DNA of 64,000 bases from positions 716-64,715 of the forward strand of contig CABYTX010000002.1 of the NCBI GenBank assembly GCA_902522015.1, read 5' to 3'. The stretch's first letter is position 1. Each line of letters starts with the position of its first letter. The notes under the pieces were generated by a model that was not told the DNA's origin, made no database searches, and saw only the letters and a list, made by a program, of their open reading frames with translations. Made by a program: the position numbers and the translations under genes. This DNA is from an uncultured Alphaproteobacteria bacterium (GTDB lineage Bacteria; Pseudomonadota; Alphaproteobacteria; HIMB59; GCA-002718135). This document shows positions 4,180 through 21,459 of this stretch, piece by piece.

Positions 4180-5002
4180 CCAAATTATTTTCACTTAGAT
4201 GCGTCCATAGATTTGAAAAACTTTGTTGAAATTTTTTTTGTGCATTTATAGCATGCTCTTTTTTTTCAAATACACTGTAAATACAAGAACCACTCCCAGT
4301 TAATCTTGAAAATATAACATCATCAAAATCCTCCAAGAAATTTATGATTGATAAAAATTCAGGTTCATTTTTTTTAAGAATTTTTTCAAAATCATTTCCA
4401 GAATCTTGATCATTTATTTCTTCTAAATCAAATTCAGCATTATAATCAAAATCTGAAGGTTGAAATGAATCATACATTTTTTTTGTCGAACATTTGAAAG
4501 ACGGTCTAATTAGTAAGAAATAATATTTTGGAAAATGAACATTAGCAATTAAATCCCCCCTACCTCTAACTAGAGCATCTTTTTGATTCAAGAAAATGGG
4601 GATATCTGAACCGAGATCAACATAATCAAATATATTTTTCTTTTTTATTATCTCAAGATTTTCTAAAATTTTTATAACACTTGCAACATTAGAGGAAGCA
4701 GAACCTAAACCAGCTTCATAAGGAAAGTTTTTTGATATAGTAAAAAGAAGTTTAGGTTTATCTTCATTTATATATGTAAATAATTTATCAATAATGCAAT
4801 CCTCAAATAAATTATTTTTTGGAGCAAAATTACCTGTATAGATTACTTTAAATTTGCTGTGAGGTTGAACAGTTATCTCATCAAAAAGATCAATGAATGT
4901 TATTCCAGTACGAATATTATGAAAACCATCATCTCTTCTATTTATAATTTTTAAAAATAAATTAATTTTGGCAGGCGATTTTTCAATTATTTTATCCGGC
5001 AT
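4166..5002 (-). CDS. ispE: 4-diphosphocytidyl-2-C-methyl-D-erythritol kinase
   Basis: 278 aa with the N-terminal PAKINLFLKI and the GHMP-kinase motif PYEAGLGSASSNVA. The 3' end overlaps the convergent ligase gene by 14 nt. Confidence 0.9.
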   Translation of the reverse strand: MPDKIIEKSPAKINLFLKIINRRDDGFHNIRTGITFIDLFDEITVQPHSKFKVIYTGNFAPKNNLFEDCIIDKLFTYINEDKPKLLFTISKNFPYEAGLGSASSNVASVIKILENLEIIKKKNIFDYVDLGSDIPIFLNQKDALVRGRGDLIANVHFPKYYFLLIRPSFKCSTKKMYDSFQPSDFDYNAEFDLEEINDQDSGNDFEKILKKNEPEFLSIINFLEDFDDVIFSRLTGSGSCIYSVFEKKEHAINAQKKFQQSFSNLWTHLSENNLVNLF

Positions 5003-6302
5003 TAATATTATCTAATTTGCTTTGAACATCTTCAGTTATTTCATCTTCTGGCTCAGCCAACTCTAAAGCTTGTTGCCAAAAATGAATTGCTTCTCTTTTT
5101 CTATTCATAGCATAATAAATATCACCAAGATGGTCTAGAGATATTGCTTCACCCGGCGCAATATCTATTACCTTTTCCATTAACCTTGCTGCTTCTGAAA
5201 GATTATTTTTTTTAAAATGAGCCCACGCTAAACTATCTATAATATAAAAACTATCTGGGTTAGCTTTGTAAGCCTCCTCTAACATTTTCAAAGAACGGTC
5301 TAATTTAATATTTCTTTCAACCCAACCGTATGCAAGATAATTTAAAACATTTGGTGTTCCGGGTTTAATCTCTAAGGATCGTAAAAAATCTTTTTCAGCT
5401 AAGTCCCATTCATCTTTTTGTTCATAGCAAATACCTCTCATATAAAAAATATTCCAGAGATCATCCTGGTTTTCTTTGATCATTTCATCATAAACATCTA
5501 AAGCTAAATCATACTTTTTATTGTAACGATAAAAATCACCTAAAGTTTTTTTAAGAGAATAATTGTTATTATTATTTTCAACTAATGATTTAATTTTAGT
5601 TTCAGCTTCCTCATAGGTATTATTGAATAAGTAATGTCTAGCAAGACTATTCTGAGCATCTAAATAATAAATACTTTCTTTATCTATCTTCGCATATATA
5701 TCTGATGCAACCTTATCTTGTCCAACTTGCGAAAATAACTCTGCTTTAATAATCATTGCTCTGTCGTTTTTTGGATCAAGTATTTTTGCGAGCGAGGTAT
5801 AAAATAATAAAAAATTATAATTTAAACGACTTTGTTCATTATTTGAATATGAGGATGATACCAATTCAACTAGAGCATTACTTATAGTACTATTATTTTT
5901 AAGTCTGTTATCAGCAAAAAAAATGAAGTCTAATAATTCACTTGGTTGCAGCATATTATCCCTTAATTCGATGATGTCTTTAAATTTTTTATCTTTGTAA
6001 AGAGATGTGGTTTTTATAATTAACGCTTCTGGGTTATTTTTGTTTTCACTTAAGATTTTATCAGCAATTTTTAAAGCTAAAACTAGATCCTCTGTAATTA
6101 TTGCAGCAATAGCTTTATCTAAAAGACTGTCTTGAGATAGGGTGACTTTATCCATATTAAATTTAAATAAAGTGGAACTATAATCATAATTATTAAAGGC
6201 AGATTGTGAGATTAAAAAAGATGAACTAGTTAAAGCTAAAGCTCCAGAATTAACAACCAGAAAAATTAAGATAAATTGTAGTATTTTAATTAAATTAACC
6301 AT
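4992..6302 (-). CDS. Tetratricopeptide-repeat protein with N-terminal signal/anchor
   Basis: 436 aa with a hydrophobic N-terminus and repeated TPR-like helices (e.g. GDIYYAMNRKREAIHFWQQALEL, WDLAEKDFLRSLEIKP). Overlaps the ispE start by 11 nt, and a TPR gene is a common alphaproteobacterial neighbour of ispE. Confidence 0.75.
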   Translation of the reverse strand: MVNLIKILQFILIFLVVNSGALALTSSSFLISQSAFNNYDYSSTLFKFNMDKVTLSQDSLLDKAIAAIITEDLVLALKIADKILSENKNNPEALIIKTTSLYKDKKFKDIIELRDNMLQPSELLDFIFFADNRLKNNSTISNALVELVSSSYSNNEQSRLNYNFLLFYTSLAKILDPKNDRAMIIKAELFSQVGQDKVASDIYAKIDKESIYYLDAQNSLARHYLFNNTYEEAETKIKSLVENNNNNYSLKKTLGDFYRYNKKYDLALDVYDEMIKENQDDLWNIFYMRGICYEQKDEWDLAEKDFLRSLEIKPGTPNVLNYLAYGWVERNIKLDRSLKMLEEAYKANPDSFYIIDSLAWAHFKKNNLSEAARLMEKVIDIAPGEAISLDHLGDIYYAMNRKREAIHFWQQALELAEPEDEITEDVQSKLDNINAG

Positions 6303-6349
6303 TTCAAATATCGTATAGTTACACTATGAATAGATAATTGTAATTTTAC

Positions 6350-7054
6350 ATGAATCAATCAAATAAAAAAAATTTAGAATTTATTATTAATTCTGGGGTA
6401 AATTATTTTCTTCAGGATTCTCCTAGAAACTGGTTTGAAAATGAAAAAAAATTAGAACAGCCTAGTTTCGACAAGGATACTGGGGATAAAAAATCTAAAA
6501 TTGATGATGTTATTGAAGATCTTAAAAATCATAAATCTCCTCTTCAAAAAACAGCAAAAAATTTAGTAGTTTATGATGGTAACTTAAATGCAAAAGTAAT
6601 GTTAATAGGTGAGGCACCAGGTAGGGATGAGGATGAACAAGGAATTCCATTCGTTGGAAGAGCTGGACAGCTATTAAATAAAATGCTTTTGGCCATTAAT
6701 TTACAAAGAGAAGACGTTTATATTACTAATGTAGTTAATTGGCGTCCAGCCGAAAATAGAACGCCTAATGACGATGAAATTTTAGAATTTTTACCGTTTT
6801 TGCAAAGACAAATTGATATCATTAAACCTAGATTTATCTTCCTATTAGGTGGTGTCGCAGCAAAAGCCATTTTATCAACCCCTCTTGCACTTGGAAAACT
6901 CAGAGGCAAATGGCATGAATACAAATCACTCAATTTAGAAAAAGGTATTCCTACAATAGCTTCTTATCATCCAGCTTTTTTACTTCGATCTCCTCAATAT
7001 AAAAAACATTCTTGGGAAGATTTACAAATGTTACAAGAAAAATTAAAGAAATGA
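6350..7054 (+). CDS. Uracil-DNA glycosylase, family 4
   Basis: 234 aa with the family-4 UDG motif GEAPGRDEDEQGIPFVGRAGQLL and the C-terminal SYHPAFLLR. Confidence 0.85.
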   Translation: MNQSNKKNLEFIINSGVNYFLQDSPRNWFENEKKLEQPSFDKDTGDKKSKIDDVIEDLKNHKSPLQKTAKNLVVYDGNLNAKVMLIGEAPGRDEDEQGIPFVGRAGQLLNKMLLAINLQREDVYITNVVNWRPAENRTPNDDEILEFLPFLQRQIDIIKPRFIFLLGGVAAKAILSTPLALGKLRGKWHEYKSLNLEKGIPTIASYHPAFLLRSPQYKKHSWEDLQMLQEKLKK

Positions 7055-8796
7055 ATCATAAAAAATTTTCTATTATTTGTTTTTTTATATTCTTCGTATT
7101 TTTTTCGAAACAAATCTATGCATACCAACAAGATATAGTCATCAAATATGATAATATTTTCTCAACAAAAGTTCTTACTGAAGAAGATGTATATAATTAT
7201 CAACAAGCTTATAAATTTCAGGAAAAGTGCAAATGGAAAAGTGCAAATAATTTTATTTTAAAAATAAAAAATAAATCTTTGCTTGGTCATATTTATGCGC
7301 AGAAATTTTTACATCCTAATTGTTATCGATCAAAGTATTTAGAATTATATTATTGGCTTAAAAAATATAATGATCACCCTCAAGCAAAACAAATTTATAA
7401 ATTGGCTATTCGAAGAATGCCAGCAGGTTATAAAAGTCCAACTAAACCTAGCGCTCCAATTGGTATAGAATCAGAACAAGTAAAAAGTAAAAAAACTAGT
7501 AAATATAAAAGCTCAAAGAAACTATCCAACAATCAGAGGGCTGAAAAAAGAAAATTAATTAATGGTATCAAATCAAGAGTGAATAAAGGTTGGCCAACGG
7601 GAGCAGTACAACTATTAAGTCAAAGAGATGTAGATCTATTACTAGATCAAGTTGAGATAGATCAACAAAAAGAATTAATAGCGAAAGGATATTTCTTAGC
7701 AAATAAAAATGACTTAGCAATTCAATATGCTTCTGAAGCTCTTGTTAATTCAGCTAAATATGTTCCTTATGCAGCTTGGACTGCTGGTCTATGTTCTTGG
7801 AGATTAGAAAAATATGAAGATGCTGCAAAATATTTTTCTCTCTTTTCAATTAGTTTAAAAGATGATGCGTGGCATCAAACATCAGGTAGTTTTTGGACAG
7901 CTAGATCATATGCAAAACTTGGTCGCTATGATGATATTAATTTTTGGTTAAAAAGAGCATCAAATAATCCAAATAGTTTTTATGGAATGCTTGCACTAGA
8001 AATTTTAGGAGTTGATAAAAAAATTGAATGGGTAGAGCATACTGATCTTAATAAAAACAATAGTACTATTTTAAATATACCAGCAGGAAAAAGAATACAA
8101 ACACTGATACAAGTTGGATTTGCCGATGAATTAGAAAAGGAAATTGTTCATATCAATTCTATTTTAAATAAAGAAATAGCAAAGGAATCTATTCAAATTG
8201 CTGAAAATTTTGATCTTGCCTATACTCAATTGAAAATTGTAAATAAGCTAGAAAATTTTGGTATGGATGTCCCAACCTATCTCTACTACCCTACTAGTGT
8301 GTGGAAGCCTCGAGATGGTTTCAAATTAGAAAAAGAATTACTCCATGCGTTCATGCATCAAGAATCGATGTTTAACATAAAGGCAAAAAGTAAAGACGGT
8401 GCTATAGGTTTAATGCAAGTATTACCTTCGACGGCAAAATTTATTACAACAAGTAAAGACGTAAAAAGAAGCAACAGTAATATTCTTAAAAATCCCGAAA
8501 TAAATTTAGAGGTTGGACAAGAATACTTAACGTATCTTCTTGATCTAGAGCAAGTTTCAAGAAATCTTATATTTCTCGCAGCAGCTTATAATGGTGGTCC
8601 CGGAAATTTACAAAAATGGAAAAATGAAACAAATTATATGGAAGACTCACTCTTTTTTATGGAAAGTATTCCTTCAAGAGAAACAAGGTGGTTTATAGAA
8701 AAAATCTTAACAAAATATTGGATTTACCAAAATAAAAATAATAAAGAAATGCATTCCCTAAAAATGCTAGCAAATGGAAATGATCCACTTTATTAA
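7051..8796 (+). CDS. slt: Soluble lytic murein transglycosylase (Slt70-like)
   Basis: Transglycosylase SLT-domain motifs ESMFNIKAKSKDGAIGLMQV and AAYNGGPGN. I prefer the ATG at 7051 (MNHKKFSIICFFIFFVFFSKQIYA, signal-peptide-like), which forms an ATGA overlap with the UDG stop. The track start at 7012 lies inside the UDG gene. Confidence 0.8.
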   Translation: MNHKKFSIICFFIFFVFFSKQIYAYQQDIVIKYDNIFSTKVLTEEDVYNYQQAYKFQEKCKWKSANNFILKIKNKSLLGHIYAQKFLHPNCYRSKYLELYYWLKKYNDHPQAKQIYKLAIRRMPAGYKSPTKPSAPIGIESEQVKSKKTSKYKSSKKLSNNQRAEKRKLINGIKSRVNKGWPTGAVQLLSQRDVDLLLDQVEIDQQKELIAKGYFLANKNDLAIQYASEALVNSAKYVPYAAWTAGLCSWRLEKYEDAAKYFSLFSISLKDDAWHQTSGSFWTARSYAKLGRYDDINFWLKRASNNPNSFYGMLALEILGVDKKIEWVEHTDLNKNNSTILNIPAGKRIQTLIQVGFADELEKEIVHINSILNKEIAKESIQIAENFDLAYTQLKIVNKLENFGMDVPTYLYYPTSVWKPRDGFKLEKELLHAFMHQESMFNIKAKSKDGAIGLMQVLPSTAKFITTSKDVKRSNSNILKNPEINLEVGQEYLTYLLDLEQVSRNLIFLAAAYNGGPGNLQKWKNETNYMEDSLFFMESIPSRETRWFIEKILTKYWIYQNKNNKEMHSLKMLANGNDPLY

Positions 8797-8802
8797 TAGG
8801 TT

Positions 8803-9330
8803 ATGCCAATTGATACTTCTCTAGATTTTGTTCCTATTAATATTGCTGTAATTACCATCTCAGATTCAAGAACTAAAGAGAATGATACATCTGGTGATAC
8901 ATTGGAAAAACGTATTACTAATGCTGGTCATACAATGATTAAACGTACAATTATCGCAGATGATGTTTCTCAAATAAAAGATACCTTAGATACAATGTCA
9001 AAAGAAGAAGACATTGATTGCATTATTACAACTGGTGGGACTGGGCTAACAGGAAGAGATACAACACCAGAAGCTGTAAATGCTATTGCTAGTAAACATA
9101 TTGATGGATTTGGTGAATTATTTCGCCAAGTTAGTTTTGAAAAAATTGGTACATCAGCAATTCAATCACGTGCAGTTGCGGCCTTAATAAATAGTACATA
9201 TGTTTTTTGTTTACCTGGATCAACAGGTGCATGCAAAGATGGCTGGGATAAAATTTTACAATATCAATTAGACATTAGACATAAACCCTGTAATTTTGTT
9301 GAAATCATGCCAAGATTAAATGAAAAATAG
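8803..9330 (+). CDS. moaB: Molybdenum cofactor biosynthesis protein B (MoaB/MogA family)
   Basis: 175 aa with ITISDSR, DTSGD, TTGGTGLTGRDTTPEA, GFGELFR, QSRA, LPGSTGAC and PCNF. All are in MoaB order. Confidence 0.8.
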   Translation: MPIDTSLDFVPINIAVITISDSRTKENDTSGDTLEKRITNAGHTMIKRTIIADDVSQIKDTLDTMSKEEDIDCIITTGGTGLTGRDTTPEAVNAIASKHIDGFGELFRQVSFEKIGTSAIQSRAVAALINSTYVFCLPGSTGACKDGWDKILQYQLDIRHKPCNFVEIMPRLNEK

Positions 9331-9944
9331 TGACTGATTTTTCTATAGAGAAATCAATTAATGGACCTGTAATTGGTTTAGATGAAGTAGGTAGAGGTCC
9401 ATTGGCAGGCCCAGTGGTGAGTTGTGGATGTTATTTTCCTAATTATGATGATTTAGAATCAGAAATACCTATTACTGACTCAAAGAAACATACAGCAAAA
9501 CAAAGAGAAAAATTATTCTTATTTTTTAAAAAATTACAAAGAGAAAAAAAGCTTCAATATTACTTAGGGTATGCAAGCGTCGAAGAAATAGATGAAATTA
9601 ATATTTTGGAAGCAACAAAATTATCGATGAAAAGAGTGATAGAAAAATTTCATTTAGAAAATCCACATTTTATTATCGATGGAAACTTTTCATTAAATTA
9701 CCAAAATGAAAAATCTATAATAGGAGGAGATAAAATATCTTTATCGATTGCAAGTGCATCTATTATTGCAAAAGTTCACCGTGATCGACTGATGAGTATA
9801 CTTGATAGTAAGTTTACATTTTATGATTGGAAAAAAAATGCAGGCTATGGAACTAAAAAACATATTGATGCAATACACAAGCACGGTGTAACTCAGTTTC
9901 ACCGAAAATCATTTGAACCAATTAAATCGTTATTAAAAAAATAA
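9330..9944 (+). CDS. rnhB: Ribonuclease HII
   Basis: 204 aa with GLDEVGRGPLAGPVV (catalytic DE). GTG start overlaps the moaB stop by 1 nt. Confidence 0.9.
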   Translation: MTDFSIEKSINGPVIGLDEVGRGPLAGPVVSCGCYFPNYDDLESEIPITDSKKHTAKQREKLFLFFKKLQREKKLQYYLGYASVEEIDEINILEATKLSMKRVIEKFHLENPHFIIDGNFSLNYQNEKSIIGGDKISLSIASASIIAKVHRDRLMSILDSKFTFYDWKKNAGYGTKKHIDAIHKHGVTQFHRKSFEPIKSLLKK

Positions 9945-10029
9945 ATTACCCAAATTTATCCATGCAAAGAATGCATACCAAATATTATTTTATTATGCTT
10001 CAAAAAGATGCGACAAACACTAAATAGTA

Positions 10030-10124: not shown

Positions 10125-10228
10125 CTTAAAGATTCCCCCTGTTGATAACTCAATTGACCTGATTCCATATCTGCTTAAAGATTCTTTTTATCAATTATGA
10201 AGAAAAATCAAATTATTTTGGGTGATTC
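10125..10228. promoter_or_regulatory. ccrM upstream region with clustered GANTC (CcrM target) sites and an 11-mer direct repeat
   Basis: GATTC occurs at 10131, 10161, 10180 and 10224. The exact 11-mer CTTAAAGATTC occurs at 10125-10135 and again at 10174-10184, 49 bp apart. The ccrM ATG is at 10197. Confidence 0.35.
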
Positions 10229-11267
10229 CATTAAGGAAATGAAAAAATTAAAAGATCACTCGGTTGATCTTATTTTTGCTGATCCACCATATAATCTTCA
10301 ATTAAAGGATACATTATACAGACCTGATCAAACAACGGTCGAAGCTGTTACACAAGATTGGGATAAATTTAGCACATATAAAGAATATGATCAATTTACC
10401 AATGCATGGCTTAGTGAATGTAAACGTGTTCTAAAAAAAGGAGGAGCGCTTTGGGTTATAGGGAGTTATCATAATATTTTACGTGTAGGTTCTACAATCC
10501 AAGATGAAGGCTTATGGATCTTAAATGATATTATTTGGCATAAAACAAACCCTATGCCAAACTTTCGTGGTACACGTTTTACAAATGCCCATGAAACACT
10601 TTTATGGTGCACAACATCAAGAGAAGCGAAATACACATTCAACTATCAAAACCTTAAAGAATTAAATGAAGGAAAACAAATGCGAAGTGACTGGTATATT
10701 CCTATTTGTTCAGGCAAAGAACGATTGCGTAAAGATAACAATCAACGATCACACCCAACTCAAAAACCAGAAGCTCTACTCTACCGAATTCTTTTAGCTT
10801 CGACAAACAAAGGTGATCTCGTTCTTGATCCCTTTTCTGGAAGTGGAACAACTGCTGTTGTAGCGAAAAAATTACAACGAAACTTTATTGGTATAGAAAA
10901 AGATAAAGACTACGTTAAACTTTCAAAAGAACGATTAAAGAATACCAAAGTATTGAAAGAAGAAGTTGTTACTATTGCAAAGAGCAGAAAAGAATTACCA
11001 AAAGTTCCTTTTGGTGAATTAGTCGAACAAGGAATTATTCCACCAGGTGCAGTATTAACAGATAAAAAAGAACGCTTTAAAGCAACGGTTAGTATTGACG
11101 GTACGCTTAAGATAAAAGATTTATCAGGTTCTATTCATCAAATGGGAGCAAAAATACAAGGACTCCCAAGTTGCAATGGTTGGGATTTTTGGCATGTAAA
11201 AGATAAGTCAAAATCAATCCTTCTTGACGAAATACGATCTAATTACCGTAAAGATAAACTAAATTAA
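10197..11267 (+). CDS. ccrM: Cell-cycle-type N6-adenine DNA methyltransferase (CcrM family, GANTC-specific by homology)
   Basis: 356 aa, beta-class order with IFADPPYNL (DPPY) near the N-terminus, then [10 protein letters not shown] and DPFSGSGTT (AdoMet binding). Has the extended C-terminal domain typical of CcrM. Confidence 0.9.
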
Positions 11268-11812
11268 TAATCTTTTATTCTTCCAACGACATTAAGATTT
11301 CGATCAGCTATTAATATTTCACCGGAAGTTACTGCCTGACCAAAGATAGCAGCGATTACTACGTAGTGTGTAACGAATACTATATTACCTTCATTTTCTA
11401 AATTATTTATAAAATTAATTAATTTCTCAAGTTGAGGCTCTTTATTTTTGTAAAATTTTGGATCATAAAACGAATTAAGAGCATTAAAAGTTTCAAATTT
11501 TTGGAATGCTAGATTTGCTGTTTCTTTACAACGACACCATTCACTAGATAAAACTAAATCTATAGAGATATCGTTTGTATCAAAAAATTTACCTAATTCG
11601 ATAGATTGCTCTTTACCAACACTATTAAGATTCCGTTGAGTAGAACAATCAAAAATATCAAAATTATCAGGATCTCCATTACCAGGAGCTAGAGCATGTC
11701 GAATAAATATTAATTTATTGTTTTGTTTTAATACCTTTACATAATCTGAATTAGCATTAGTTGATAAAGAATAAATAAAAGTCAGTACAATAATAATTAA
11801 TTTCTTAATCAA
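11264..11812 (-). CDS. Secreted histidine-phosphatase-superfamily protein (phosphoglycerate-mutase-like fold)
   Basis: 182 aa with signal peptide [30 protein letters not shown] (RHG-type motif) and a later VTHYVV histidine. The TTG start overlaps the upstream gene's stop (TTGATTAA). Its own stop overlaps the ccrM stop. Confidence 0.7.
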
Positions 11813-13124
11813 TTATAATTCTAGGTTCAAAAGGATGTAGTTTTTCTAGGCGTTCGACTGCCCAAAGATTATCTTCCGTAACTTGATTCAAAGAATACAT
11901 ACCCTCTACATCACCATTAATATCAAAGTCTAATGATCCTGAGACACCTTCATAATTAATTTCGACACCTCGAACAAGTAAAGCACGAGCAGCTTCCCAA
12001 CTTCCAGGTCCCATTTTAATTCCTGGTGGATTTGCAACACTAACTAAACTTTTTGATAGATCTTCCTTTGCAATATTATTATGTGCTTGATGCTGTAGAG
12101 CCAAAGCTGCTAGCATCATTGTATCAAAACTTATGGCTGAGTACGGGGAATTAGGATCAACGCCTGCATTCAACATAATATTAGCGTAAGTTTGAAATTC
12201 TTCTGAGCTTTGTGAAGTTGCTTGGGCAACAATAGTTGTATTTTCGTTTAATTGAATTGGAATATACGAATAAATTAAATCTTTGACTTCATTGGTTAAC
12301 ATACTATCAGAGCCATAATGATGTTTAAAAATTCCTGAGGTTTCTAATTCTTGTAATCTGCTTAAAACAGTATTGGTAAACTGTTCAAGTAAATTGACAG
12401 TTCTCTCATTTCCATGAAGAAACATAACTAAACCTGGTTGATCATTCTCTATGGCAATATCAACAAATGTATTGATGAAGTTCTGATTAATAACTGTTTT
12501 GTCTGTCAGTAAAGTATTAAATAAAACTATACCTTCTTGCTCAGTGTAAACTTTTAAAAAATTTTGAGCCAGTGTAGAATTATAATTATCATCACCGTAA
12601 AGAAGAATTATTTCTCTGATATTCTTGGATAGAAGATAATTGGCAATAGAGGTTGATTGCTGAATATCAGAAGGAATGGTTCTAAAAAATAGATCATTAT
12701 CTTCAATTGTTGAGAGTAAAGGGTAACTTGCAGAAGAGGAGATCGTTAAGATATTTTCTGGAATAGTTACTTTCTCTATTACTCTGACAGCACTTGTTGA
12801 GCACGTCGGTCCTAAAAGAATTTCAGGGTCATTTTTTTTTAAATAGTCATTTAAACTATCTTCTGTTTTTCTAGGATCACATCCTGAATCAATGCTATCA
12901 ATAGAGATGAGGCCTCTTCCTACAATACCAATACCATCCGCATTAATTGTTTCTACAGCAACTCTTTTTGCTTCTGCAATTGACTCAGCAATTTCACTCA
13001 CTGGGCCACTTTCTGCATAAAGGGCAGCAATTTTAACTTCTGCACTCACAAAAGTTGAGTAAAATAATATGATCTTGAGGATAATTATCGTAATAATTTT
13101 CATTATATGAGATGTTTTTATCAT
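11805..13124 (-). CDS. Periplasmic binding protein, type I (Leu/Ile/Val-binding / ANF-receptor-like fold), orphan with no transporter partners
   Basis: 439 aa with a signal peptide and VKIAALYAESGPVSEIAESIAEAKRVAVETINADGG-type N-terminal lobe. Length and alternating alpha/beta pattern resemble LivJ/K-like binding proteins. No permease or ATPase gene is adjacent. Confidence 0.6.
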   Translation of the reverse strand: MIKTSHIMKIITIIILKIILFYSTFVSAEVKIAALYAESGPVSEIAESIAEAKRVAVETINADGIGIVGRGLISIDSIDSGCDPRKTEDSLNDYLKKNDPEILLGPTCSTSAVRVIEKVTIPENILTISSSASYPLLSTIEDNDLFFRTIPSDIQQSTSIANYLLSKNIREIILLYGDDNYNSTLAQNFLKVYTEQEGIVLFNTLLTDKTVINQNFINTFVDIAIENDQPGLVMFLHGNERTVNLLEQFTNTVLSRLQELETSGIFKHHYGSDSMLTNEVKDLIYSYIPIQLNENTTIVAQATSQSSEEFQTYANIMLNAGVDPNSPYSAISFDTMMLAALALQHQAHNNIAKEDLSKSLVSVANPPGIKMGPGSWEAARALLVRGVEINYEGVSGSLDFDINGDVEGMYSLNQVTEDNLWAVERLEKLHPFEPRIIID

Positions 13125-13130
13125 AAATTT

Positions 13131-14813
13131 TTAGAATGAAAATGTGGTATTAAGTAAATACACAGGTCTAGAAGTAGTTCCCTCAATACTTTTATCAGCT
13201 TCTGCTACTTCAAAACTAATATCAAGACTATTAGAATTAAGAGGAATTTTAATTTTAACACCGTACCCTCCACTTGCTACTTCTGTTCGACTGAACTCAC
13301 CTGAGGCTGGTCGTTTATAGTAGGTAGCACCAACACCAAGATGAATATACGGTTCAATACGTATAGACTCTTCCCTTTTATCTTCGTCATCTTCTGAAAA
13401 AGGATACAAGGGTCTACTCAATTCTGTTCGCAAAAAGAAACCTTGATCACCAGACATATTACCTGATTCAAAACCAGACATTTGACCTGGTCCTGTTATA
13501 TTTATTTGTTCTGAATTAATTAAACCTCTATCACTTACAAGTTTTTGAAAAACAAAACGTGTGTTCAATAAATACTCTCTAAATATTTGCCTATTCAAAT
13601 TAATATCACTATTCCATTTAATAAAATTTAAAGTGGAGCCCACACGGGATAATGTTTTAGTATCTGATGTTTTATTAGTATAGATCGGAGTGCCAAACTT
13701 TAAAGCTGAACTACCTTTGAGAGATAACGTATCTAAGAAAGATAAGTTAGTCGTCGTATATTTTAACTCAAGAGCATTGTATTCATCATAAAAGGTATCA
13801 TTTGTGAGGAAAGATAATGTTCGATGTTCTCTTTCCTTAATCCATTGCCAATCTAATGAAAGATTATTTTTTATAAGCCGCGTATTTTTTATTTGATATT
13901 CAAGACCAAGGTTAATTTTTTTAAATTCCCCTTTTTTATTTAAACCTTTAGGTTCTGAATAAGATTCATTAACAGCACCAAAAATAGAAAAGTCTGAGGC
14001 AAGAAGTGGTACTTTACCACCAACAAGATATGCTTCTCGAAAATCTGTTCGTTTAATAATTTCTGTTTCATCAAATGGAACATTAACACCATTTTCAGGA
14101 TCTAAGACGTAGGCTGCATAAAGATTTTCACCATAACCAAAAGGACTATTAAAACTTAGGTAAGAAGTGAACTGATCTTTTCCTGCTGTTTCTGATAATC
14201 CATTTGAATAGGTAAAATAACCACTTACTAATTCGTGTTCAGCATTTAGTTGTAGTGAAGATGTTCCAGGTTCTTCTCCTGCCTTAATTGTTGTTTCTAA
14301 ATCAACACCTGGTAATTCTCGTGATTTAATGATCGATTTTTCAATAGCAGGATATTCTAACCCTTTAATACCAACGAGTTTATCGAAATATTTCTTTATT
14401 GGTTTTGAAATACGTTTATCTAATTGTGAGTAATCAATTGATTCAATTTTACCAGGAAAAACAATAGCTTTTATTTTAGTATTTTGTTCAATTGTTTGAG
14501 GTGGAACAATAAAACGCGTTAAAAAATATCCATTTAAAACATACAATTGCTCTAATGCAATCAGTAAATTATAAAAATCTTTTAATGTTATTGTTTTAAA
14601 AATTTTTGATTTAAATAAATTTTTACGAAGCTCAATCATGTCTTCGATTTCATTTTCAATTTCAATTCCAACAAAATTAAATGAAATATTTTCTGCTCCA
14701 GGTGGTACGACCAAGCCTGTTTCATAAACAATATAATTACCAGTATTTGTCAAACCAGGATATGACATGAATGAAATAGAAATAAAAAAGATAAAAGATA
14801 AAAAATATCGCAT
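13131..14813 (-). CDS. ShlB/FhaC/HecB-family two-partner-secretion outer-membrane transporter (TpsB)
   Basis: 560 aa with a signal peptide, a POTRA-like N-terminal region, amphipathic beta-strand-rich sequence and a C-terminal aromatic residue (..LLNTTFSF). Its ATG directly abuts the stop of the TPS-domain exoprotein gene. Confidence 0.8.
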   Translation of the reverse strand: MRYFLSFIFFISISFMSYPGLTNTGNYIVYETGLVVPPGAENISFNFVGIEIENEIEDMIELRKNLFKSKIFKTITLKDFYNLLIALEQLYVLNGYFLTRFIVPPQTIEQNTKIKAIVFPGKIESIDYSQLDKRISKPIKKYFDKLVGIKGLEYPAIEKSIIKSRELPGVDLETTIKAGEEPGTSSLQLNAEHELVSGYFTYSNGLSETAGKDQFTSYLSFNSPFGYGENLYAAYVLDPENGVNVPFDETEIIKRTDFREAYLVGGKVPLLASDFSIFGAVNESYSEPKGLNKKGEFKKINLGLEYQIKNTRLIKNNLSLDWQWIKEREHRTLSFLTNDTFYDEYNALELKYTTTNLSFLDTLSLKGSSALKFGTPIYTNKTSDTKTLSRVGSTLNFIKWNSDINLNRQIFREYLLNTRFVFQKLVSDRGLINSEQINITGPGQMSGFESGNMSGDQGFFLRTELSRPLYPFSEDDEDKREESIRIEPYIHLGVGATYYKRPASGEFSRTEVASGGYGVKIKIPLNSNSLDISFEVAEADKSIEGTTSRPVYLLNTTFSF

Positions 14814-17800
14814 TTATAGTCTTTGAATACTAAGCGCGTCTACCTGAGGAAAAGATGTAATAAATTCATTTTGTATTAGTGCTGCATTAGATGCACCATC
14901 AACAGATATAAAAGACACAATTCGAGATACGTCATCGAAAACATCTTTATTTATTTTTTCTTGAACAACAATTTTTTCTTTTTCTTCATCTGGTGCTACT
15001 CCTGGAAGTGGCGGAGTTTTAGAACCACTAAGAATGTTAGCAAGTGGAACCGTTTCTAAAGGTCCATTTGAATCTTCAATTGTAATACTACCTGAAGTAA
15101 ACCCTGAGAGTTGATAATTGATTGGAACCTCTTTATTATTTTCAACATCTGCTGTTAAAAAACTACCAGAGGAACTTATAGAAAGATCAGTACCTGTTAA
15201 ATTTAAACCTGATATTGTTCCTCCACTAACTGTAGCTGATGTAGTTCCATCATATGTCTTATCGTCAGCGCTAGCCCCTGATATTGAAAAATTATCTGAA
15301 ATTAGAGTACCTGTGGTAGCAGTGACAGTAGATAGATTTATATTTCCCATACTAGCATTGGTTAATGTACCGCCATCTAAAAGTTTTATAGTTAAATCAT
15401 CTGCTGTTAAGCTTGCAGAACTAGCAACAACATCTCCTACTCCAGCATCTCTATCACTATCAGAAACATTGTTAGTATTTGTGTCACTTGCAATAATTTC
15501 TAGATCTGCTGCTGTATTGATATTGCTGTTAATATTAACATCCCTTCCGGCATGAAGATTTAAATTTCCAGTTCCTGTAACAGTAATAGCAGAACTAATG
15601 GTAATATCTGTATTTGCTTGAAGGGTAACTTCAACGCCGTTATTTAAAAATTCCTCTAATTCTGTTATGTTGATAACCACATCATCACTTGCAAAATCTG
15701 TGTAAGATGTTGCCCCTTGCATGATTGTATCAGACCATAAATATACTGCTCCCGCATCTGTTCCATCACCGTCATCATTACCAAGTCCATCATCTCGAGT
15801 TGCACCTACAGCCATTAATGTTCCTGTATCATCCATAGCTATACTGTTTGGAAATTCATCAGCATCTTCTAGTCCGTGAGTCGTAGCATTAAGCGTATTA
15901 CTACCAGTTTGACCAAGTCCTATAGTAAATTGTAAACTTGCTCCATTTAAAGATGTATCCTGAAAACCAAATACATGTACATCATCCGTATCATGGTGAC
16001 CAATTGCTAGGCGGTTTCCATCACCATCAATAGCTACCTGACCTGCCTTAAAACCAGAAATACCTGATGTATCGTAATCTTTTCCACCATTACCCTCATA
16101 TTTATTTCCTATGGATGCAACATAGTCAGGAGTGCTAAAATTATCACCAAAGGTGAAAAGGTGCACTGCACCTGTATCAGTATAATTGCCATCAAAACCA
16201 TCATCTTTATGCGTTCCAACAGCTAAAATTTTACCATCCTTTGTTAATGCAATATGACTAGCAAAATTGTCATTATTATCTAAAATTGAACTTATATTTT
16301 CATTATTATTTCCTGTATAACCAGATCCTATTGTGCCGACATGATTAGGATTATCAAAATCGGTATTACTAAATCTAATTAAATGAACTGCACCTGCATT
16401 TGTTGCGGTATCATCATATCCATCATCTCTTTGAGCGCCAACAACAAGACCTGATCCATCATCAGTTAAAGCCACTGAGGTAAATAAATCACCGTCATCT
16501 AAAGTACTTATTGATAGATTGTGTTCGTTATCTGAGGGATAACTTCTTCCAATTGTACCGACATGTTCAGGAGTACTAAAATTATCACCAAATGTTACTA
16601 AATAGACAGATCCTGTTTCTACTGCTCCTGTAGTAGTTTTATATCCTGAAAAAGCTAATCTGTCACCGTCTCCATCTAAAGCTACTCGCCATGCTCTTTC
16701 ATTATTTGCTAGAGAATTTATATCTAAATTGTTGGACCCTGTATAACCTTTTCCAATTTTTCCTTTAAATTCTGGGGTAGAAAAATTTGTATCAGCAAAT
16801 GTAAATAAATATACTGCTCCAGTATTTGTTTGGAGGTCGTCACTTCCATCATCATAAGTTGATGTTACAGCCATTCTATCTCCATCACGATCGAGAGATA
16901 TACCTCTACCAAATTGGTCATTACTATCTAGTTGATCATCAATATCTAAATTACTAGCACCATATCCACTACCAACGATTCCATAAATTTCACCACTGCT
17001 GAAAGCATCATCATCAAATTTAATAAGCATCACTTCACCACTTTTAGATTGTGTATTACTATTTCCGCTTGCAAGCATACCTGAAATTACAAGACGACTG
17101 CCCGTTTCATTCAAATCTACACCATCTCCAAAAAGATCTTTAGCATCCATATACGCACTTAAATCAACATTTTTACCACCACTATACCCATCACCTATTG
17201 TTGCTACATAAGATGCTGATGCTAAATTATCAGTTAAATTATATAAATGTACACCACCAGGCTTGGTAGTACCACCCTCAGATAACTTGTCGTTAAAGCT
17301 AACAGCTAAACGATTAGCATCTTTATCAAACGCCACTGATTTACCTAAAACATCTTGTGATCCAAGTGTTTCTGTGTGTTCACTATCATCACTCGTATCT
17401 AGATAATCGTAACCATACCCAATTGTTCCAACATAAGTAGCTGTTCCCGTTTCAGCAGAAACAACACTACCGTCTTTCATAAATTTAAATAAATTAACTG
17501 CTCCCGCATTTGTTGCATTATTACCTTTACCATCATCAAATATCCTTGATGCTGCAAGTAAAGATCCTTCATGATTTAACGTTACACTCCAACCAAGACG
17601 ATCTCTTCTGTTTAACTTTAAATCGGTTTCACTTTCTGTATCAAAATCCTGTGAAAATGATGCACAAGTGCTATTTGCATAACAATCAGAACCTGTATTA
17701 TATGTATAGCCATGACCAATTCGAGATTTAACTTCACCACCTTTAAAATCTGAATTTAAGGAAATCATAAAAACTGAACCAGAGTCATCTCTTTCTGACC

Positions 17801-20054
17801 CTCCCTCCGAATAACCATGGTCACCATAACTACCGACTGCCAAAACATCAGCATCACCATCTAGAGCTACACTTACTCCAAATAAATCAGATACCTCAAT
17901 AACAGGAGCATTATTATCTCCCTGACTCAATAAATTTATATTGTTAGAACCAGTATAACCAGCACCTATTGTGCCTACGTGTTCACCACCTGCGTATGAT
18001 GTATCACTAAAAGTAATTAAATAAACTGCACCTGCATTTTTATAATCACCATCATAACCATCATCACCCGTTGCTCCAATTGCTAGTCGTTTTCCTGTGC
18101 TATCAAAAGATACAGATCGTCCAAATTTATCATCTTTACCTATAGTGCTGATATTTATATTAAGACCTCCGGTATATCCTTTTCCTATACGACCCATGAG
18201 TGTAGCATTTGTAAAATCGCCATCATCAAATTTATACAAATATACTTCTCCAGATGATGATGATTGATTTGAAGATCCTTTACCGTGCCTTGCTCCAACT
18301 ACCATTAAAGTAGCATCATCACTAATGCTAACATCTGATCCAAAATTATCATCTATTTCTAGATTTTCTTCATTTAGATTTCCATCTAGTAATGTATCTA
18401 CGTAATCGTGTCCAATCAATCCTCGATAGATCCAATTTTGTGATGTTACACCTGTTCCAACAGTTATATTTTTTGGATCAAGTAATAAATGACCACCTTC
18501 TGATATATTAACATTTGATAATCCCACATGGCGTAAGGTATCTTTCGAAGAAATCTCAACTGCACCACCTGTTGTTCCTGTTGCATCAATATTACCAAGC
18601 ATAGTTGTTTCTTGATCACTCCAAATAATTGCGGTACCGGCTTTTCCTTCAGATGATGATATATCAATCCTAGAACCGTCCGAGACTAAAACTGTTTTTG
18701 CATTTGTGAGCGATCGTCTTTCACCCCATCTATCAACAAAAACATCTTGTTGTTCTGCAGTTCTTGTTAAATTATTATTGCCTTGAAACTCTCCACCAAT
18801 ACGAACTAAACCACCTTGGGTATTACCTGCTACATCAATCTTAGAGGATAATAATCGAATATATCCCTCTGATTCTAAGTCAATATATCCACCTTGTTGA
18901 TTACCTTTTGCGGAAACTGAACCAGAAGACATAATATTAGGTGCGGATAAAAGAATATTACCACCATTGGTATTTCCTGATGAATTAATTTCACTGCTAT
19001 AACTTTGAACAATTTTATATTCAGATTTAATATTAATAGCACCACCACTATTTTGAGTAGAAGAAGCATTTAAATTCCCTCCCAATGAAATTTCTCCAGA
19101 ACTATTTAAATTTATTGAGCCTGCATTTGTTCCGGATACATCAACTTCTCCTCCAAAAGATAAAAAGTCTCCCTCTACATTAATGTTACCACCCTCTTTT
19201 GCTGTTAAGTTTCCTGCAACAACAATGTCGCTTCCACTTCCAAGAGTAATGACACCGTTTTGTTGTGAAGCCGTAGTTGCAACAAGATTGCCGGGAATAT
19301 TAACAGCACGCTGAACAACATTTTTGGCAGCACCCACATCAATGTCTATTCTATTTCCCGTTGATGTTCCTGCATGATTTATAATTGTACTTAATTCTTC
19401 TGCATTTTGATCGAGCAAGGTAATGGCTTCAGTAAAGGGGATGCTTACTTGTAAAAATTTATCACCACTTAAGTCTAATGTTATTTCTTTTCCAGCTCCT
19501 ATGCCAATTTTACCAAGATTAGCATTAATCGTGCCTTCATTATCAACAGCACCACCTAATAAGGCAGTAAACCCTCCATCCAAAGTTGTAATAGAACCTT
19601 TATGAACGATAGAAGAAAAAATATTATCTACGTCATCTAGTTTAAATAATAATTTATTATTAAGAAAATCGTCATTGGATAAAGCAAGGGTGGACGCAGC
19701 AAATGAATGAGCGTTGATTGTTGACGTAGGTGTAAAATAGACGCCGTTTTCATTCACAACAAAAACTTTACCATTGGCATTTAGTACACCAGCTAATGTT
19801 GTTGGATTGCCAGAAATGACTCTATTAAGTGCACTAGCAGCTGCAGAAGGTTGATTAAAAGTAACTGTATTATTTTCTCCAATGTTAAAACTATTCCATT
19901 CTATGATAGCTTGGTCTGATTGCTGTTGAATTGTCAGCGTCTGATCATCAGTAGTAAGTGAAACATCACCTGATATCGTTGTACTTCCACTCGGTAATTC
20001 AGCAAATAAATGAAGTGAATAAAAAAAGAATAAAATAATTACAAATACTCTCAT
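14814..20054 (-). CDS. Two-partner-secretion exoprotein (TpsA) with a filamentous-haemagglutinin-type N-terminal TPS domain and 12 FG-GAP-like repeats
   Basis: 1746 aa with signal peptide MRVFVIILFFFYSLHLFA. The TPS domain reads IIEWNSFNIGENNTVTFNQPSAAASALNRVISGNPTTLAGVLNANGKVFVVNENGVYFT (NPNL- and NPNGI-like motifs). A Gly/Asn/Ser-rich beta-helix-like segment follows, then the FG-GAP-like repeats. A KTYDGTTSA segment lies near the C-terminus. Confidence 0.85.
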   Translation of the reverse strand: MRVFVIILFFFYSLHLFAELPSGSTTISGDVSLTTDDQTLTIQQQSDQAIIEWNSFNIGENNTVTFNQPSAAASALNRVISGNPTTLAGVLNANGKVFVVNENGVYFTPTSTINAHSFAASTLALSNDDFLNNKLLFKLDDVDNIFSSIVHKGSITTLDGGFTALLGGAVDNEGTINANLGKIGIGAGKEITLDLSGDKFLQVSIPFTEAITLLDQNAEELSTIINHAGTSTGNRIDIDVGAAKNVVQRAVNIPGNLVATTASQQNGVITLGSGSDIVVAGNLTAKEGGNINVEGDFLSFGGEVDVSGTNAGSINLNSSGEISLGGNLNASSTQNSGGAINIKSEYKIVQSYSSEINSSGNTNGGNILLSAPNIMSSGSVSAKGNQQGGYIDLESEGYIRLLSSKIDVAGNTQGGLVRIGGEFQGNNNLTRTAEQQDVFVDRWGERRSLTNAKTVLVSDGSRIDISSSEGKAGTAIIWSDQETTMLGNIDATGTTGGAVEISSKDTLRHVGLSNVNISEGGHLLLDPKNITVGTGVTSQNWIYRGLIGHDYVDTLLDGNLNEENLEIDDNFGSDVSISDDATLMVVGARHGKGSSNQSSSSGEVYLYKFDDGDFTNATLMGRIGKGYTGGLNINISTIGKDDKFGRSVSFDSTGKRLAIGATGDDGYDGDYKNAGAVYLITFSDTSYAGGEHVGTIGAGYTGSNNINLLSQGDNNAPVIEVSDLFGVSVALDGDADVLAVGSYGDHGYSEGGSERDDSGSVFMISLNSDFKGGEVKSRIGHGYTYNTGSDCYANSTCASFSQDFDTESETDLKLNRRDRLGWSVTLNHEGSLLAASRIFDDGKGNNATNAGAVNLFKFMKDGSVVSAETGTATYVGTIGYGYDYLDTSDDSEHTETLGSQDVLGKSVAFDKDANRLAVSFNDKLSEGGTTKPGGVHLYNLTDNLASASYVATIGDGYSGGKNVDLSAYMDAKDLFGDGVDLNETGSRLVISGMLASGNSNTQSKSGEVMLIKFDDDAFSSGEIYGIVGSGYGASNLDIDDQLDSNDQFGRGISLDRDGDRMAVTSTYDDGSDDLQTNTGAVYLFTFADTNFSTPEFKGKIGKGYTGSNNLDINSLANNERAWRVALDGDGDRLAFSGYKTTTGAVETGSVYLVTFGDNFSTPEHVGTIGRSYPSDNEHNLSISTLDDGDLFTSVALTDDGSGLVVGAQRDDGYDDTATNAGAVHLIRFSNTDFDNPNHVGTIGSGYTGNNNENISSILDNNDNFASHIALTKDGKILAVGTHKDDGFDGNYTDTGAVHLFTFGDNFSTPDYVASIGNKYEGNGGKDYDTSGISGFKAGQVAIDGDGNRLAIGHHDTDDVHVFGFQDTSLNGASLQFTIGLGQTGSNTLNATTHGLEDADEFPNSIAMDDTGTLMAVGATRDDGLGNDDGDGTDAGAVYLWSDTIMQGATSYTDFASDDVVINITELEEFLNNGVEVTLQANTDITISSAITVTGTGNLNLHAGRDVNINSNINTAADLEIIASDTNTNNVSDSDRDAGVGDVVASSASLTADDLTIKLLDGGTLTNASMGNINLSTVTATTGTLISDNFSISGASADDKTYDGTTSATVSGGTISGLNLTGTDLSISSSGSFLTADVENNKEVPINYQLSGFTSGSITIEDSNGPLETVPLANILSGSKTPPLPGVAPDEEKEKIVVQEKINKDVFDDVSRIVSFISVDGASNAALIQNEFITSFPQVDALSIQRL
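15729..18353 (-). repeat. Degenerate in-frame tandem repeat region inside tpsA (12 units, ~65-96 aa each, FG-GAP-like)
   Basis: Protein residues ~568-1442. The recurring unit is FGxSVxxDxxGxRLAxGAxxDDG....AGAVYLFxF followed by GTIGxGYTGxNN. The FG-position spacings that I counted are 73, 81, 96, 83, 71, 73, 73, 70, 73, 72 and 65 aa. Confidence 0.6.
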
Positions 20055-20145: not shown

Positions 20146-21459
20146 TTAGGTGATGCGTTGATAAATTTTACCTAAATAAGAAAATAAAGTCAAAGCTCTG
20201 GCAATAAAGAAGATGCAGAGTGATAACCATAAGCCTGTATTACCAAAACTTGCTATTAAGAAAAAAGAAGCGACAATATAAATCACCACAGATACTATCA
20301 TTGCGTTTCGCAGTTCTGTTGTTTGGGATGCACCTACAAAAATACCATCAAATTGAAAACAGAAAGAGGAAATAAAAGGAATAATAACAATCCAATATGC
20401 ATAGGAAAAACAGATATCTCTAATCTCGGACAAATCAGTCATGGCAATAATAAAGTAATGATTACCAAAGAAAAAAATAACACATATTAATAAAGCTGTA
20501 GAAGCACTTAAAATAAAAGAATTTTTAATAACGTCTTTTAATAAACGTAAATTTTTAGAGCCAATAGAATATCCAACAATACCCTCTGTTGAAAATGCAT
20601 AGGCATCAAGAATAAACGCAGATAGCATCGTTAGATTAAGCAATATTGTGTTTGCAGCAACCGTCTCCTCACTAATAGAATTGCCAAGATAGGTAAAATA
20701 TAAGAAAGCAAATGTAAGAAGAATAGATCGGATAAATATATTAAAATTAATATTAAAAATATTTTTAATTTTTTTAAAGTTAAAAATCTTTTGTTTATCA
20801 TATTCTAACTGAGCAAACTTATTTAAATCAAAAAAAGTATAAAATAAAAAAATAATTGTTGTCAAAGAAGAAGAGACTAAAGTACCAAGAGCAACACCCT
20901 GAACATTCAAATTTAAATATAAAACAAAAAATAAGCTAAAGAGTATATTTGTAATAGAAAAGAAACCAATAATGATACTTGATGTTTTTGTTTTCTGTAA
21001 ACCAATAAACAATCCTGTAATTACAAAAATAGTAAGCTCTCCAAATGAGGAATAAATACGAAGATTAAAATAGTCTTTAAAATATTTTTTTGTTTCTAAT
21101 GATAGTTCAAATATAGATAATGATATTTGAAATATATATCTCTGAAAAATAATAAGTAGTAAGGAAATAATAATTACAAAAGAAATATTTCGTAAAAATA
21201 TATTTATAATTTCCTGATAATCTTTTGATCCATAAGCTTGAGCTACCATGCCGACCGTACCCATACGCAGGAAGCCAAAACTCCAGAAAATCATCGAAAA
21301 AACACTTGCTGCAATACTGGTAGCAACCAAGTAACTAGCATTATCAAGATTGCCCATTAGTCCTGTGTCAACAATGGCAACTAAAGGAATAGCTAAGTTT
21401 GCAAAAAATATTGGAATAGAAAGTTTAATTATATTTTTGATAGAAGATTTAGAGGACAT
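20146..21459 (-). CDS. MATE-family efflux transporter
   Basis: 437 aa, about 12 hydrophobic segments, and a MATE-like N-terminus (IIKLSIPIFFANLAIPLVAIVDTGLMGNL). Confidence 0.8.
   Translation of the reverse strand: MSSKSSIKNIIKLSIPIFFANLAIPLVAIVDTGLMGNLDNASYLVATSIAASVFSMIFWSFGFLRMGTVGMVAQAYGSKDYQEIINIFLRNISFVIIISLLLIIFQRYIFQISLSIFELSLETKKYFKDYFNLRIYSSFGELTIFVITGLFIGLQKTKTSSIIIGFFSITNILFSLFFVLYLNLNVQGVALGTLVSSSLTTIIFLFYTFFDLNKFAQLEYDKQKIFNFKKIKNIFNINFNIFIRSILLTFAFLYFTYLGNSISEETVAANTILLNLTMLSAFILDAYAFSTEGIVGYSIGSKNLRLLKDVIKNSFILSASTALLICVIFFFGNHYFIIAMTDLSEIRDICFSYAYWIVIIPFISSFCFQFDGIFVGASQTTELRNAMIVSVVIYIVASFFLIASFGNTGLWLSLCIFFIARALTLFSYLGKIYQRIT

Follow-up and report, generated by a model that had tools for sequence, protein, structure and literature searches.

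A tpsA-tpsB-pbp cassette of SAR11-type bacteria and the possible role of its binding-fold protein

Gene content of the locus and conservation of the gene trio

The DNA analysed here (the window) is a stretch of 64,000 nucleotides (nt) from an uncultured Alphaproteobacteria bacterium (GenBank assembly GCA_902522015.1, contig CABYTX010000002.1, positions 716–64,715). It matches contig CACNKX010000003.1 of the marine single-cell genome AG-893-E11 (GCA_902621165.1). It has a two-partner secretion (TPS) locus on the minus strand, in which genes for an exoprotein (tpsA) and a pore (tpsB) are followed by a gene (pbp) for a periplasmic binding-fold protein (PBP). The tpsA gene, an open reading frame (ORF) at positions 14814–20054 of the window, encodes a secreted exoprotein of 1746 amino acids (aa) with matches to the Pfam families TPS, FG-GAP_2 and YDG and to TIGR01901, and has orthologues in all related loci. 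It is followed by tpsB (13131–14813), which encodes a 560-aa transporter of the Omp85/ShlB type, assigned to the outer membrane from Pfam matches to ShlB and POTRA_2 and from an AlphaFold model. The pbp gene (11805–13124) encodes 439 or 432 aa with a type-I binding fold of the LivJ/ANF_receptor type, as identified by Pfam, by a profile search of the PDB and by synteny. Downstream of pbp is a histidine phosphatase gene on the same strand (11264–11812, 182 aa, TTG start), recognized by His_Phos_1 and PRK06193-like matches; it is a variable neighbour in the slot between pbp and ccrM. The ccrM-type DNA methyltransferase gene (10197–11267, plus strand, Pfam N6_N4_Mtase and RAMA) is a conserved core gene and forms one border of the island.

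The junctions were read directly on the sequence. The ATG of tpsB directly follows the TAA stop of tpsA with a gap of 0 nt, and 6 nt separate the tpsB stop from the ATG of pbp. The phosphatase gene begins at a TTG that overlaps the pbp stop (ATTGATTAA), and a single TTAA at positions 11264–11267 is common to the phosphatase and ccrM stops. In most database entries pbp starts at Met8, which gives 432 aa and a 27-nt gap. The public annotation starts tpsB at Met16 (545 aa); the 560-aa start is the better one because the Met16 start would remove the leader. All four minus-strand products begin with a hydrophobic Sec-type stretch, as judged by eye from the translations. A preliminary description of this DNA, made from the sequence, agrees with these readings: the four ORFs and their junctions, including the overlap of the phosphatase and convergent ccrM stops, lie at exactly the coordinates it gave, the domains it named all score above curated cut-offs (Pfam; NCBIfam for some), and the signal peptides it assigned to the binding protein and the phosphatase are visible by eye as hydrophobic leaders. 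It also stated that the binding protein has no permease or ATPase gene nearby. This is confirmed in that no ATP-binding cassette (ABC) ATPase-like ORF is present within ~20 kb of pbp in the window, and a Pfam scan of flanking ORFs gave housekeeping genes and no permease.

Relatives of the PBP were collected, and one genome per GTDB species was then scanned for PBP orthologues. This gave 30 species-level genomes with an orthologue (≥85% identity), all of them marine single-cell assemblies. The three genes tpsA, tpsB and pbp are found together, with the same spacing, in 30/30 of these genomes. Nineteen orthologous metagenome contigs extend upstream of pbp, and tpsB is at that position in all but one of them (18/19); the exception, L105, is described below. 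More distant PBP orthologues from metagenomes, with identities of 52–59%, show the same tpsA-tpsB-pbp order. The linkage of the trio spans 52–100% PBP identity and about 55 loci, and the gap between pbp and tpsB ranges from 6 to about 30 nt. The PBP and TpsB identities change in step (PBP/TpsB pairs of 100/100, 95/92, 86/84, 90/81 and 54/56%). The GC content of the window is ~30% and close relatives carry the label Pelagibacteraceae, which points to a SAR11-type lineage.

Related loci are designated here by L numbers. Three neighbourhoods of the trio can be identified. In most loci it is beside ccrM, which is 93–100% identical across the loci of the ≥85% clade; in L081 and L152 it is beside MFS-lpd-sucB-sucA; and in L007 it is beside ThuA/GFO genes. 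The trio is also intact in a fourth locus, L084, where the flanking genes have no family assignment. The preliminary description had suggested a search for synteny of all four proteins. For the binding protein, pbp orthologues do lie directly after tpsB across the three identified neighbourhoods. The island content around the trio is mixed and consists of MATE, rhodanese, phosphatase and small secreted protein genes. The MATE gene is absent in L030, and extra tpsA genes are present directly upstream of tpsA in L018–L028 and L151.

The sole copy of pbp without tpsB is in L105 (metagenome contig Ga0181580_10270934, positions 1–1165), where a MATE gene end runs directly into a pbp of which only the 3' half is left. 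The remnant corresponds to residues 246–439 with 78% identity, and the 5' part of the fragment is degenerate. The arrangement looks like a deletion scar in which tpsA, tpsB and half of pbp were lost, or possibly a chimeric assembly. A distant TpsB match of 22% identity (L082) has tpsB-tpsA without pbp. Two loci of the 52% clade, L101 and L110 (LUME01003521.1 and LUMD01004130.1), both have tpsA split into two frames; L101 also has a split tpsB and L110 a split pbp. These may represent assembly errors or decaying copies of the cassette.

The tpsA-tpsB-pbp adjacency is not due to chance because it recurs in every orthologous locus examined, and the three genes are one heritable, movable unit. The preliminary description had presented four coupled genes. 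The part of this that stands is tpsA-tpsB-pbp, which is fixed (30/30 genomes and 18/19 contigs); the phosphatase does not belong, as it is missing from 11 of the 30 genomes. The actual unit is very probably a three-gene accessory cassette of SAR11-type bacteria, consisting of one to three copies of tpsA followed by tpsB and pbp, with the phosphatase excluded.

No intergenic terminator-like site was found within the locus. A promoter scan found 51 sites vs 62.5 in shuffles, i.e., fewer than in the shuffles, and is uninformative in DNA of ~30% GC. Rfam gave no match between positions 9000 and 23500. Upstream of tpsA is a MATE efflux gene (20146–21459, minus strand, Pfam MatE) that belongs to the variable island content. 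By Pfam, one flank has genes for DNA ligase, an ispE-like kinase, UDG, SLT, RNase HII and ccrM, and the other has an IMPDH-family gene and purine-synthesis genes (a purK-type carboxylase, SAICAR synthetase and GAR synthetase). The ligase is an ATP-dependent enzyme of 522 aa with all three ligase domains. Its gene and a 329-aa ORF, the end of which it overlaps, lie within window positions 1625–4179, and this ORF weakly matches a metallo-hydrolase RNA-specificity domain. An ATP-dependent DNA ligase is likewise present in related loci.

Properties of the exoprotein, pore and binding protein

TpsA consists, in order, of a leader, a TPS domain, a beta-helix-like stalk, twelve repeats, a conserved region with the YDG domain and a C-terminal tail. 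The TPS secretion domain (aa 21–281, positions 19212–19994, minus strand) matches PF05860 with 90.8 bits (cut-off 33.5, E=1.7e-25) over model positions 5–248 of 252, and it is 80–100% identical across the clades with ≥85% PBP identity. The TIGR01901 match is 70.6 bits (cut-off 29.1). The NPNG-type motif of TPS domains is replaced in TpsA, which reads VVNENGVYF, and a paralogue in L151 likewise has NENG. As both family cut-offs are still passed, NENG is best read as a variant motif and not as a sign of a degenerate domain; the preliminary description had named a degenerate TPS domain as a finding that would speak against it, and the domain is intact. The FG-GAP_2 match is 110.5 bits. Twelve FG-GAP-like repeats with a period of ~73 aa (aa 569–1466, positions 15657–18350, minus strand) were delineated with a self-built repeat hidden Markov model (E values of 1e-17 to 1e-31). 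The YDG/MBG-type domain (aa 1590–1652, positions 15099–15287, minus strand) matches PF18657 with 30.5 bits (cut-off 25, E=4.4e-07). The C-terminal tail (aa 1695–1746, positions 14817–14972, minus strand), which ends in ...SIQRL, is near-invariant in orthologues of all clades. A Pfam scan detected no toxin, pretoxin (PT-VENN) or hydrolase domain in TpsA.

Sequence variation in TpsA is concentrated in the middle of the protein. The repeat block is 44–67% identical between alleles, and other parts of TpsA are 56–98% identical. Comparison of L009 with the window shows identities of 98% in the TPS domain, 92% in the stalk, 85% in the C-terminal region and 66% in the repeat block; the TpsB and PBP of L009 are 99–100% identical to those of the window. 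In L009, L010, L012 and L016 the repeats have been replaced although the TPS domain, TpsB and PBP are 95–100% identical. This pattern fits an exposed surface part of the protein that is under diversifying selection or is frequently replaced.

Many genomes carry extra copies of tpsA. L151 (AG-892-I02, CACMYX010000001.1, positions 1–10000) has three tandem tpsA genes followed by a single tpsB and a single pbp. The three products are >1365 aa, 1240 aa and 1771 aa in size, each with its own TPS domain, and the island is >17 kb. The extra copies are located where the window has the MATE gene. The tail, about the last 50 residues, can still be made out in the extra tpsA paralogues, and its final residues are always (S/G)(I/L/F)-Q-(R/S/N)-L, i.e., Q-x-L. 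A distant alphaproteobacterial TpsA (L082) ends in ...SSL.

TpsB matches the Pfam families ShlB (64.4 bits, cut-off 22.7) and POTRA_2 (24.5 bits, cut-off 24). The AlphaFold model has a mean predicted local distance difference test (pLDDT) score of 70 and displays two POTRA-like units and a barrel. The best solved structural matches of the model are CdiB (6wim, template modeling scores of 0.66/0.69) and FhaC. As modeled, TpsB is a CdiB/FhaC-like outer membrane transporter. There are 44 residues before POTRA1 compared with a median of 72 in 133 relatives, i.e., TpsB is ~28 residues shorter in this region. No helix is predicted by AlphaFold between the leader and POTRA1, where residues 16–33 are of low confidence. 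TpsB of the SAR11 clade thus seems to lack the plug helix H1 and the linker.

Two motifs of the pore differ from the usual form. At the tip of loop L6, TpsB has MSGF in place of VRG(Y/F), and the aligned CdiB residues are SVRGF. The partner-motif position reads PYIHLGVG and does not have the Asp of (F/G)xDxG; this motif (motif 4) could not be aligned to solved structures by HMMER, and the reading is from the family alignment. An exhaustive search gave roughly 2,000 TpsB relatives. In the nearest non-SAR11 relatives of TpsB, which are 25–30% identical, Ser replaces the L6 Arg in 123/133 sequences and Ala replaces the presumed partner Asp in 111/133. The wider ShlB-type subfamily represented by these 133 relatives has lost both sides of the usual L6 salt bridge together. 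The L6 Arg-to-Ser change was considered as a peculiarity of the SAR11 locus and was dropped, since 123/133 of the nearest relatives share it and it is a subfamily trait.

The PBP matches ANF_receptor with 93.7 bits and Peripla_BP_6 with 61.3 bits. When a profile of the PBP family is compared with the PDB, LivK and LivJ are the best matches (E=3e-15, N-terminal lobe). A Foldseek search with the low-confidence PBP model gives LivJ, GABA-B and mGlu receptors, which indicates the fold class only. To map the putative pocket, the PBP was aligned to E. coli LivJ, with the LivJ binding residues known from structures 1Z15–1Z18. In this alignment, S79 of LivJ corresponds to S109 of the PBP, A100-A101-T102 to S131-A132-S133, Y150 to Y181, E226 to D273, Y202 to H237 (Tyr in three members) and F276 to Y328. 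The C53–C78 disulfide of LivJ corresponds to C82–C108, and the stacking residue Tyr18 corresponds to I45. The mapped positions are almost all invariant across the clade. The PBP probably still binds a small molecule with amino-acid-like groups.

Identity of the PBP to any protein outside the SAR11 clade is 24–29%. Homologues of <30% identity are found in Dehalococcoidia, Halomonas/Onishia, Rhodovibrio and cyanobacteria and have no TpsB nearby. By a crude motif scan, 11 of 38 distant homologues have an ABC ATPase-like ORF no more than 8 kb away, and a 26%-identical relative in Onishia adjoins a livH-livM-livG-livF-type gene set. No livH, livM, livG or livF genes are present in ~20 kb around pbp in the window, nor in the related loci listed or scanned. 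The LivK/LivJ profile matches together with the liv-adjacent distant relatives indicate that the PBP descends from LivJ-type transporter binding proteins, and that the SAR11 protein has exchanged permease neighbours for TpsB. Distant PBP relatives in metagenome-assembled genomes of Dehalococcoidia, Chloroflexi, Gaiellaceae and Actinomycetes (L055, L062–L071) occur in arrays of 2–4 PBP-like ORFs. With lengths of 800–1200 codons, some of these ORFs encode much larger proteins in which the binding fold is one part.

Possible functions of the binding protein and the separable phosphatase

In the proposed mechanism, one to three TpsA proteins would be exported by TpsB to the surface of the cell, with the variable repeats as the exposed, selected part of TpsA and the conserved ends close to the cell. 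The PBP would remain periplasmic, as a partner dedicated to this secretion system, and bind a small amino-acid-like ligand. It may link this ligand to how TpsA is handled, retained or released, possibly via the POTRA domains or the TpsA tail. A partner role for the PBP is preferred because of its strict linkage to tpsB and its pore-like gene position, because the PBP changes in step with TpsB, because one pbp serves several tpsA genes, and because the variable middle of TpsA looks like a target of biotic selection and not like the receptor for a fixed nutrient. This explanation as a whole, a three-gene cassette with the PBP as a secretion partner, is judged to have about an even chance of being correct. 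Taken by itself, the assignment of the PBP as a dedicated partner or regulator of the secretion system is tentative. It is rather doubtful, though conceivable, that the PBP is an obligate periplasmic component of a plug-less TPS pore, acting either in ligand-dependent secretion or release, or in an outer membrane capture route that feeds a periplasmic receptor.

Several points weigh against a partner role. Contact of the PBP with TpsB or TpsA is putative. The conserved small-ligand pocket would fit ordinary transport at least as well as regulation. The pocket mapping is by sequence alignment to LivJ; the AlphaFold model of the PBP, made from an 18-sequence family alignment, has a pLDDT of 58, too low for the pocket geometry to be read. 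Co-transcription of the locus is inferred from gene spacing alone (gaps of 0 and 6 nt). Genomes with the phosphatase gene have it starting within the pbp stop; there the enzyme is probably co-expressed with the PBP and could modify the system. No TPS system is known to have a binding-fold partner, hence there is no precedent for this role.

The PBP could instead serve in the uptake of a nutrient. Here the surface TpsA would capture or concentrate a substrate, a small amino-acid-like product would cross the outer membrane, perhaps through a plug-less TpsB, and the PBP would take it up in the periplasm and hand it to a Liv-type (HAAT) ABC permease encoded elsewhere. This explanation is uncertain in its own right, but it is nearly as likely as the partner role. 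It is in accord with the LivJ ligand-anchoring residues that appear, by the alignment, to be kept in the PBP, with the distant PBP relatives that are transporter binding proteins beside livHMGF-type genes, and with the predicted lack of the H1 plug in TpsB. HxuCBA, which acts on haem-hemopexin, is a precedent for TPS-based nutrient capture. A Liv-type permease may also be available for docking, as suggested by strain HTCC1062, where the binding proteins SAR11_1346 (branched-chain amino-acid type) and SAR11_1361 are found in one shared 14.6-kb genomic context (PMC11485210). However, the presumed capture part of TpsA is its most variable part (44–67% identity) and is swapped between near-identical genomes, which is unusual for the receptor of a defined chemical, and the Pfam scan gave no hydrolase domain in TpsA. 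The pbp gene is last, behind the pore gene, and cells usually produce scavenging binding proteins in large excess. A dedicated surface protein also should not be needed for small amino-acid-like solutes.

It is unlikely that the PBP is an ordinary orphan transporter binding protein that only travels in the same mobile block. Orphan binding proteins that share a permease are common, the pocket is conserved by the same LivJ alignment, and the mixed content of the rest of the island (MATE, rhodanese, phosphatase and small secreted protein) would be in keeping with a passenger gene. Yet every other neighbour varies, and pbp stays with tpsB over 52–100% identity, at three identified sites and in ~55 loci. 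The short pbp-tpsB gap (6 to ~30 nt) and the truncated state of the only tpsB-less copy (L105) also argue against a passenger.

The phosphatase does behave as a gene that comes and goes. Of the 30 genomes with the trio, 17 have an intact phosphatase gene and 11 have none; one has an internal deletion, and in one the contig ends at this point, which leaves the state unread. The internal deletion (L017) is in-frame and leaves 71 codons. In L014 and L015 the gene is absent though the PBP is 99% identical to that of the window, and it is in no locus of the 52–59% clade or of the sucAB-side clade (L081, L152). Where the phosphatase is lacking, the stops of pbp and ccrM lie directly next to each other, and the junction has the same haplotype (ATTATTATAGATTAATTTAG) in different clades. 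This shared haplotype points to an old presence/absence polymorphism. The phosphatase is also found without the trio: L075, from Pelagibacteraceae, has no tpsA, tpsB or pbp and carries, in this order, a 159-aa gene, MATE, phosphatase, FAD oxidoreductase and ccrM, with a phosphatase that is 70% identical to that of the window and in the same MATE-ccrM slot. Relatives of 57% identity elsewhere come after an ABC permease or a TPR gene, and the family is large with at least 7934 matches. The phosphatase gene is present or absent independently of the trio and does not belong to the unit. A tight gene overlap is therefore no proof of functional coupling, as the phosphatase gene overlaps pbp and yet is separable from it.

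The slot between pbp (or the phosphatase gene) and ccrM is a small hot spot that can have a rhodanese gene, a secreted-protein gene, both or nothing. The genes found there encode a 122-aa rhodanese-domain protein and a 138-aa leader-bearing protein with no family match, and they are always on the opposite strand. Examples are L016:11325–11693, L031:8039–8455, L013 and L021.

The phosphatase itself matches His_Phos_1 (PF00300) with 30.6 bits (cut-off 21.7). The catalytic residues R38, H39, R60, E91 and H149 are invariant in 17 members of the family, and every member has a leader. It looks like a functional periplasmic enzyme that merely adjoins the unit. It resembles the PRK06193/SixA-like periplasmic histidine phosphatases in the His_Phos_1 domain, the RH(A) motif, the invariant second Arg, Glu and His, and the leader. 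It differs from them in its best NCBIfam match, which is below cut-off (76.9 vs 178), and in a pbp-adjacent position that is polymorphic.

The preliminary description had proposed a full four-gene module of surface capture, hydrolysis of a phosphate ester and binding, e.g., for organophosphate. The overlap of the pbp stop with the phosphatase TTG start in 17 genomes, the leaders on both proteins and the intact catalytic residues are all compatible with such a module. It is nevertheless very improbable. A hydrolysis step is not sustained by a phosphatase that is dispensable, being absent from 11/30 trio genomes, internally deleted in 1/30 and missing from the deeper clades and sucAB-side loci, and that occurs without the trio in L075. 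The preliminary description had named, as a result that would count against the module, orthologues of the binding protein and phosphatase that elsewhere always lie with ABC permeases or unrelated genes and never beside tpsAB. The phosphatase answers to this, both in L075 and in the large family (≥7934 matches) in unrelated contexts. In addition, the PBP pocket resembles an amino-acid site and not a phosphate site in the LivJ alignment. Of the functions first proposed, capture with binding, or sensing, are still candidates for the three-gene core. A contact-dependent inhibition (CDI)-like system, in which TpsA would deliver a toxin and the PBP would be the immunity protein, is rejected as the least probable of all, for although the closest solved structure of TpsB is CdiB and tpsA is polymorphic and can be present in several copies, Pfam detects no PT-VENN or toxin domain, the variable part of TpsA is central and its C-terminus is the best-conserved part, and the downstream gene is invariant, encoding an exported protein of 439 aa that is far larger than usual immunity proteins and does not co-vary with tpsA alleles (99–100% identical where TpsA is 77%).

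Comparison with known two-partner secretion systems

SAR11 envelopes are thought to be minimal and nutrient-focused, and a surface cassette of 9 kb to >17 kb in a flexible island is a notable investment for such cells. The hypervariable repeats suggest a surface protein that is selected by phages, grazers or cell-cell contact, about which little is known in SAR11. If the PBP acts with the pore, it would be a new kind of accessory factor in a well-studied secretion pathway, and a transporter binding protein would have been recruited to a new job. The locus would also be the first case of a solute-binding-fold subunit in a TPS system, and it occurs in the most abundant bacterial lineage of the ocean. 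The preliminary description did not recognize a TPS locus with a solute-binding-fold gene, and among the papers searched, on SAR11/Pelagibacter TPS or FG-GAP proteins and on TPS with a periplasmic binding protein, none describes one. The genetic evidence is solid, and the function of the PBP is inferred.

With respect to transporter binding proteins, LivJ and LivK (HAAT) are the best sequence matches of solved structure, and the PBP has in common with them the fold and, by the alignment, apparently the disulfide and most of the ligand-anchoring residues. It differs in that there is no nearby permease or ATPase gene, the gene is downstream of tpsB, Ile replaces the stacking Tyr18, and there are an extra internal insertion and a C-terminal extension of ~45 residues.

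By its defining domains and predicted fold, the locus is a two-partner secretion system. It shares with FhaB/FhaC of Bordetella and with CdiA/CdiB the TPS domain, a TpsB with two POTRA domains and a barrel, the adjacent genes and a large repetitive exoprotein. Unlike these systems, the SAR11 locus has a constant third gene for a binding-fold protein and no detected toxin/immunity pair. Its passenger has FG-GAP-like repeats, and the variable part is central and not C-terminal. The SAR11 TpsB has no predicted H1 plug helix, and the L6 tip is (L/M)SGF in place of VRG(Y/F), a feature in which its nearest relatives are alike. Third components are found in known TPS loci, i.e., a TonB-dependent receptor in HxuCBA, a glycosyltransferase in HMW1ABC and an immunity protein in CdiBAI. 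HxuCBA and HMW1ABC are similar to the SAR11 locus in having one additional dedicated gene fixed to the TpsA/TpsB pair; in the SAR11 locus the product of this gene would be a soluble periplasmic Venus-flytrap protein and not a TonB-dependent receptor or a cytoplasmic glycosyltransferase. The locus thus differs from the described types in its binding-fold third gene, its FG-GAP passenger with a variable center and its apparently plug-less pore.

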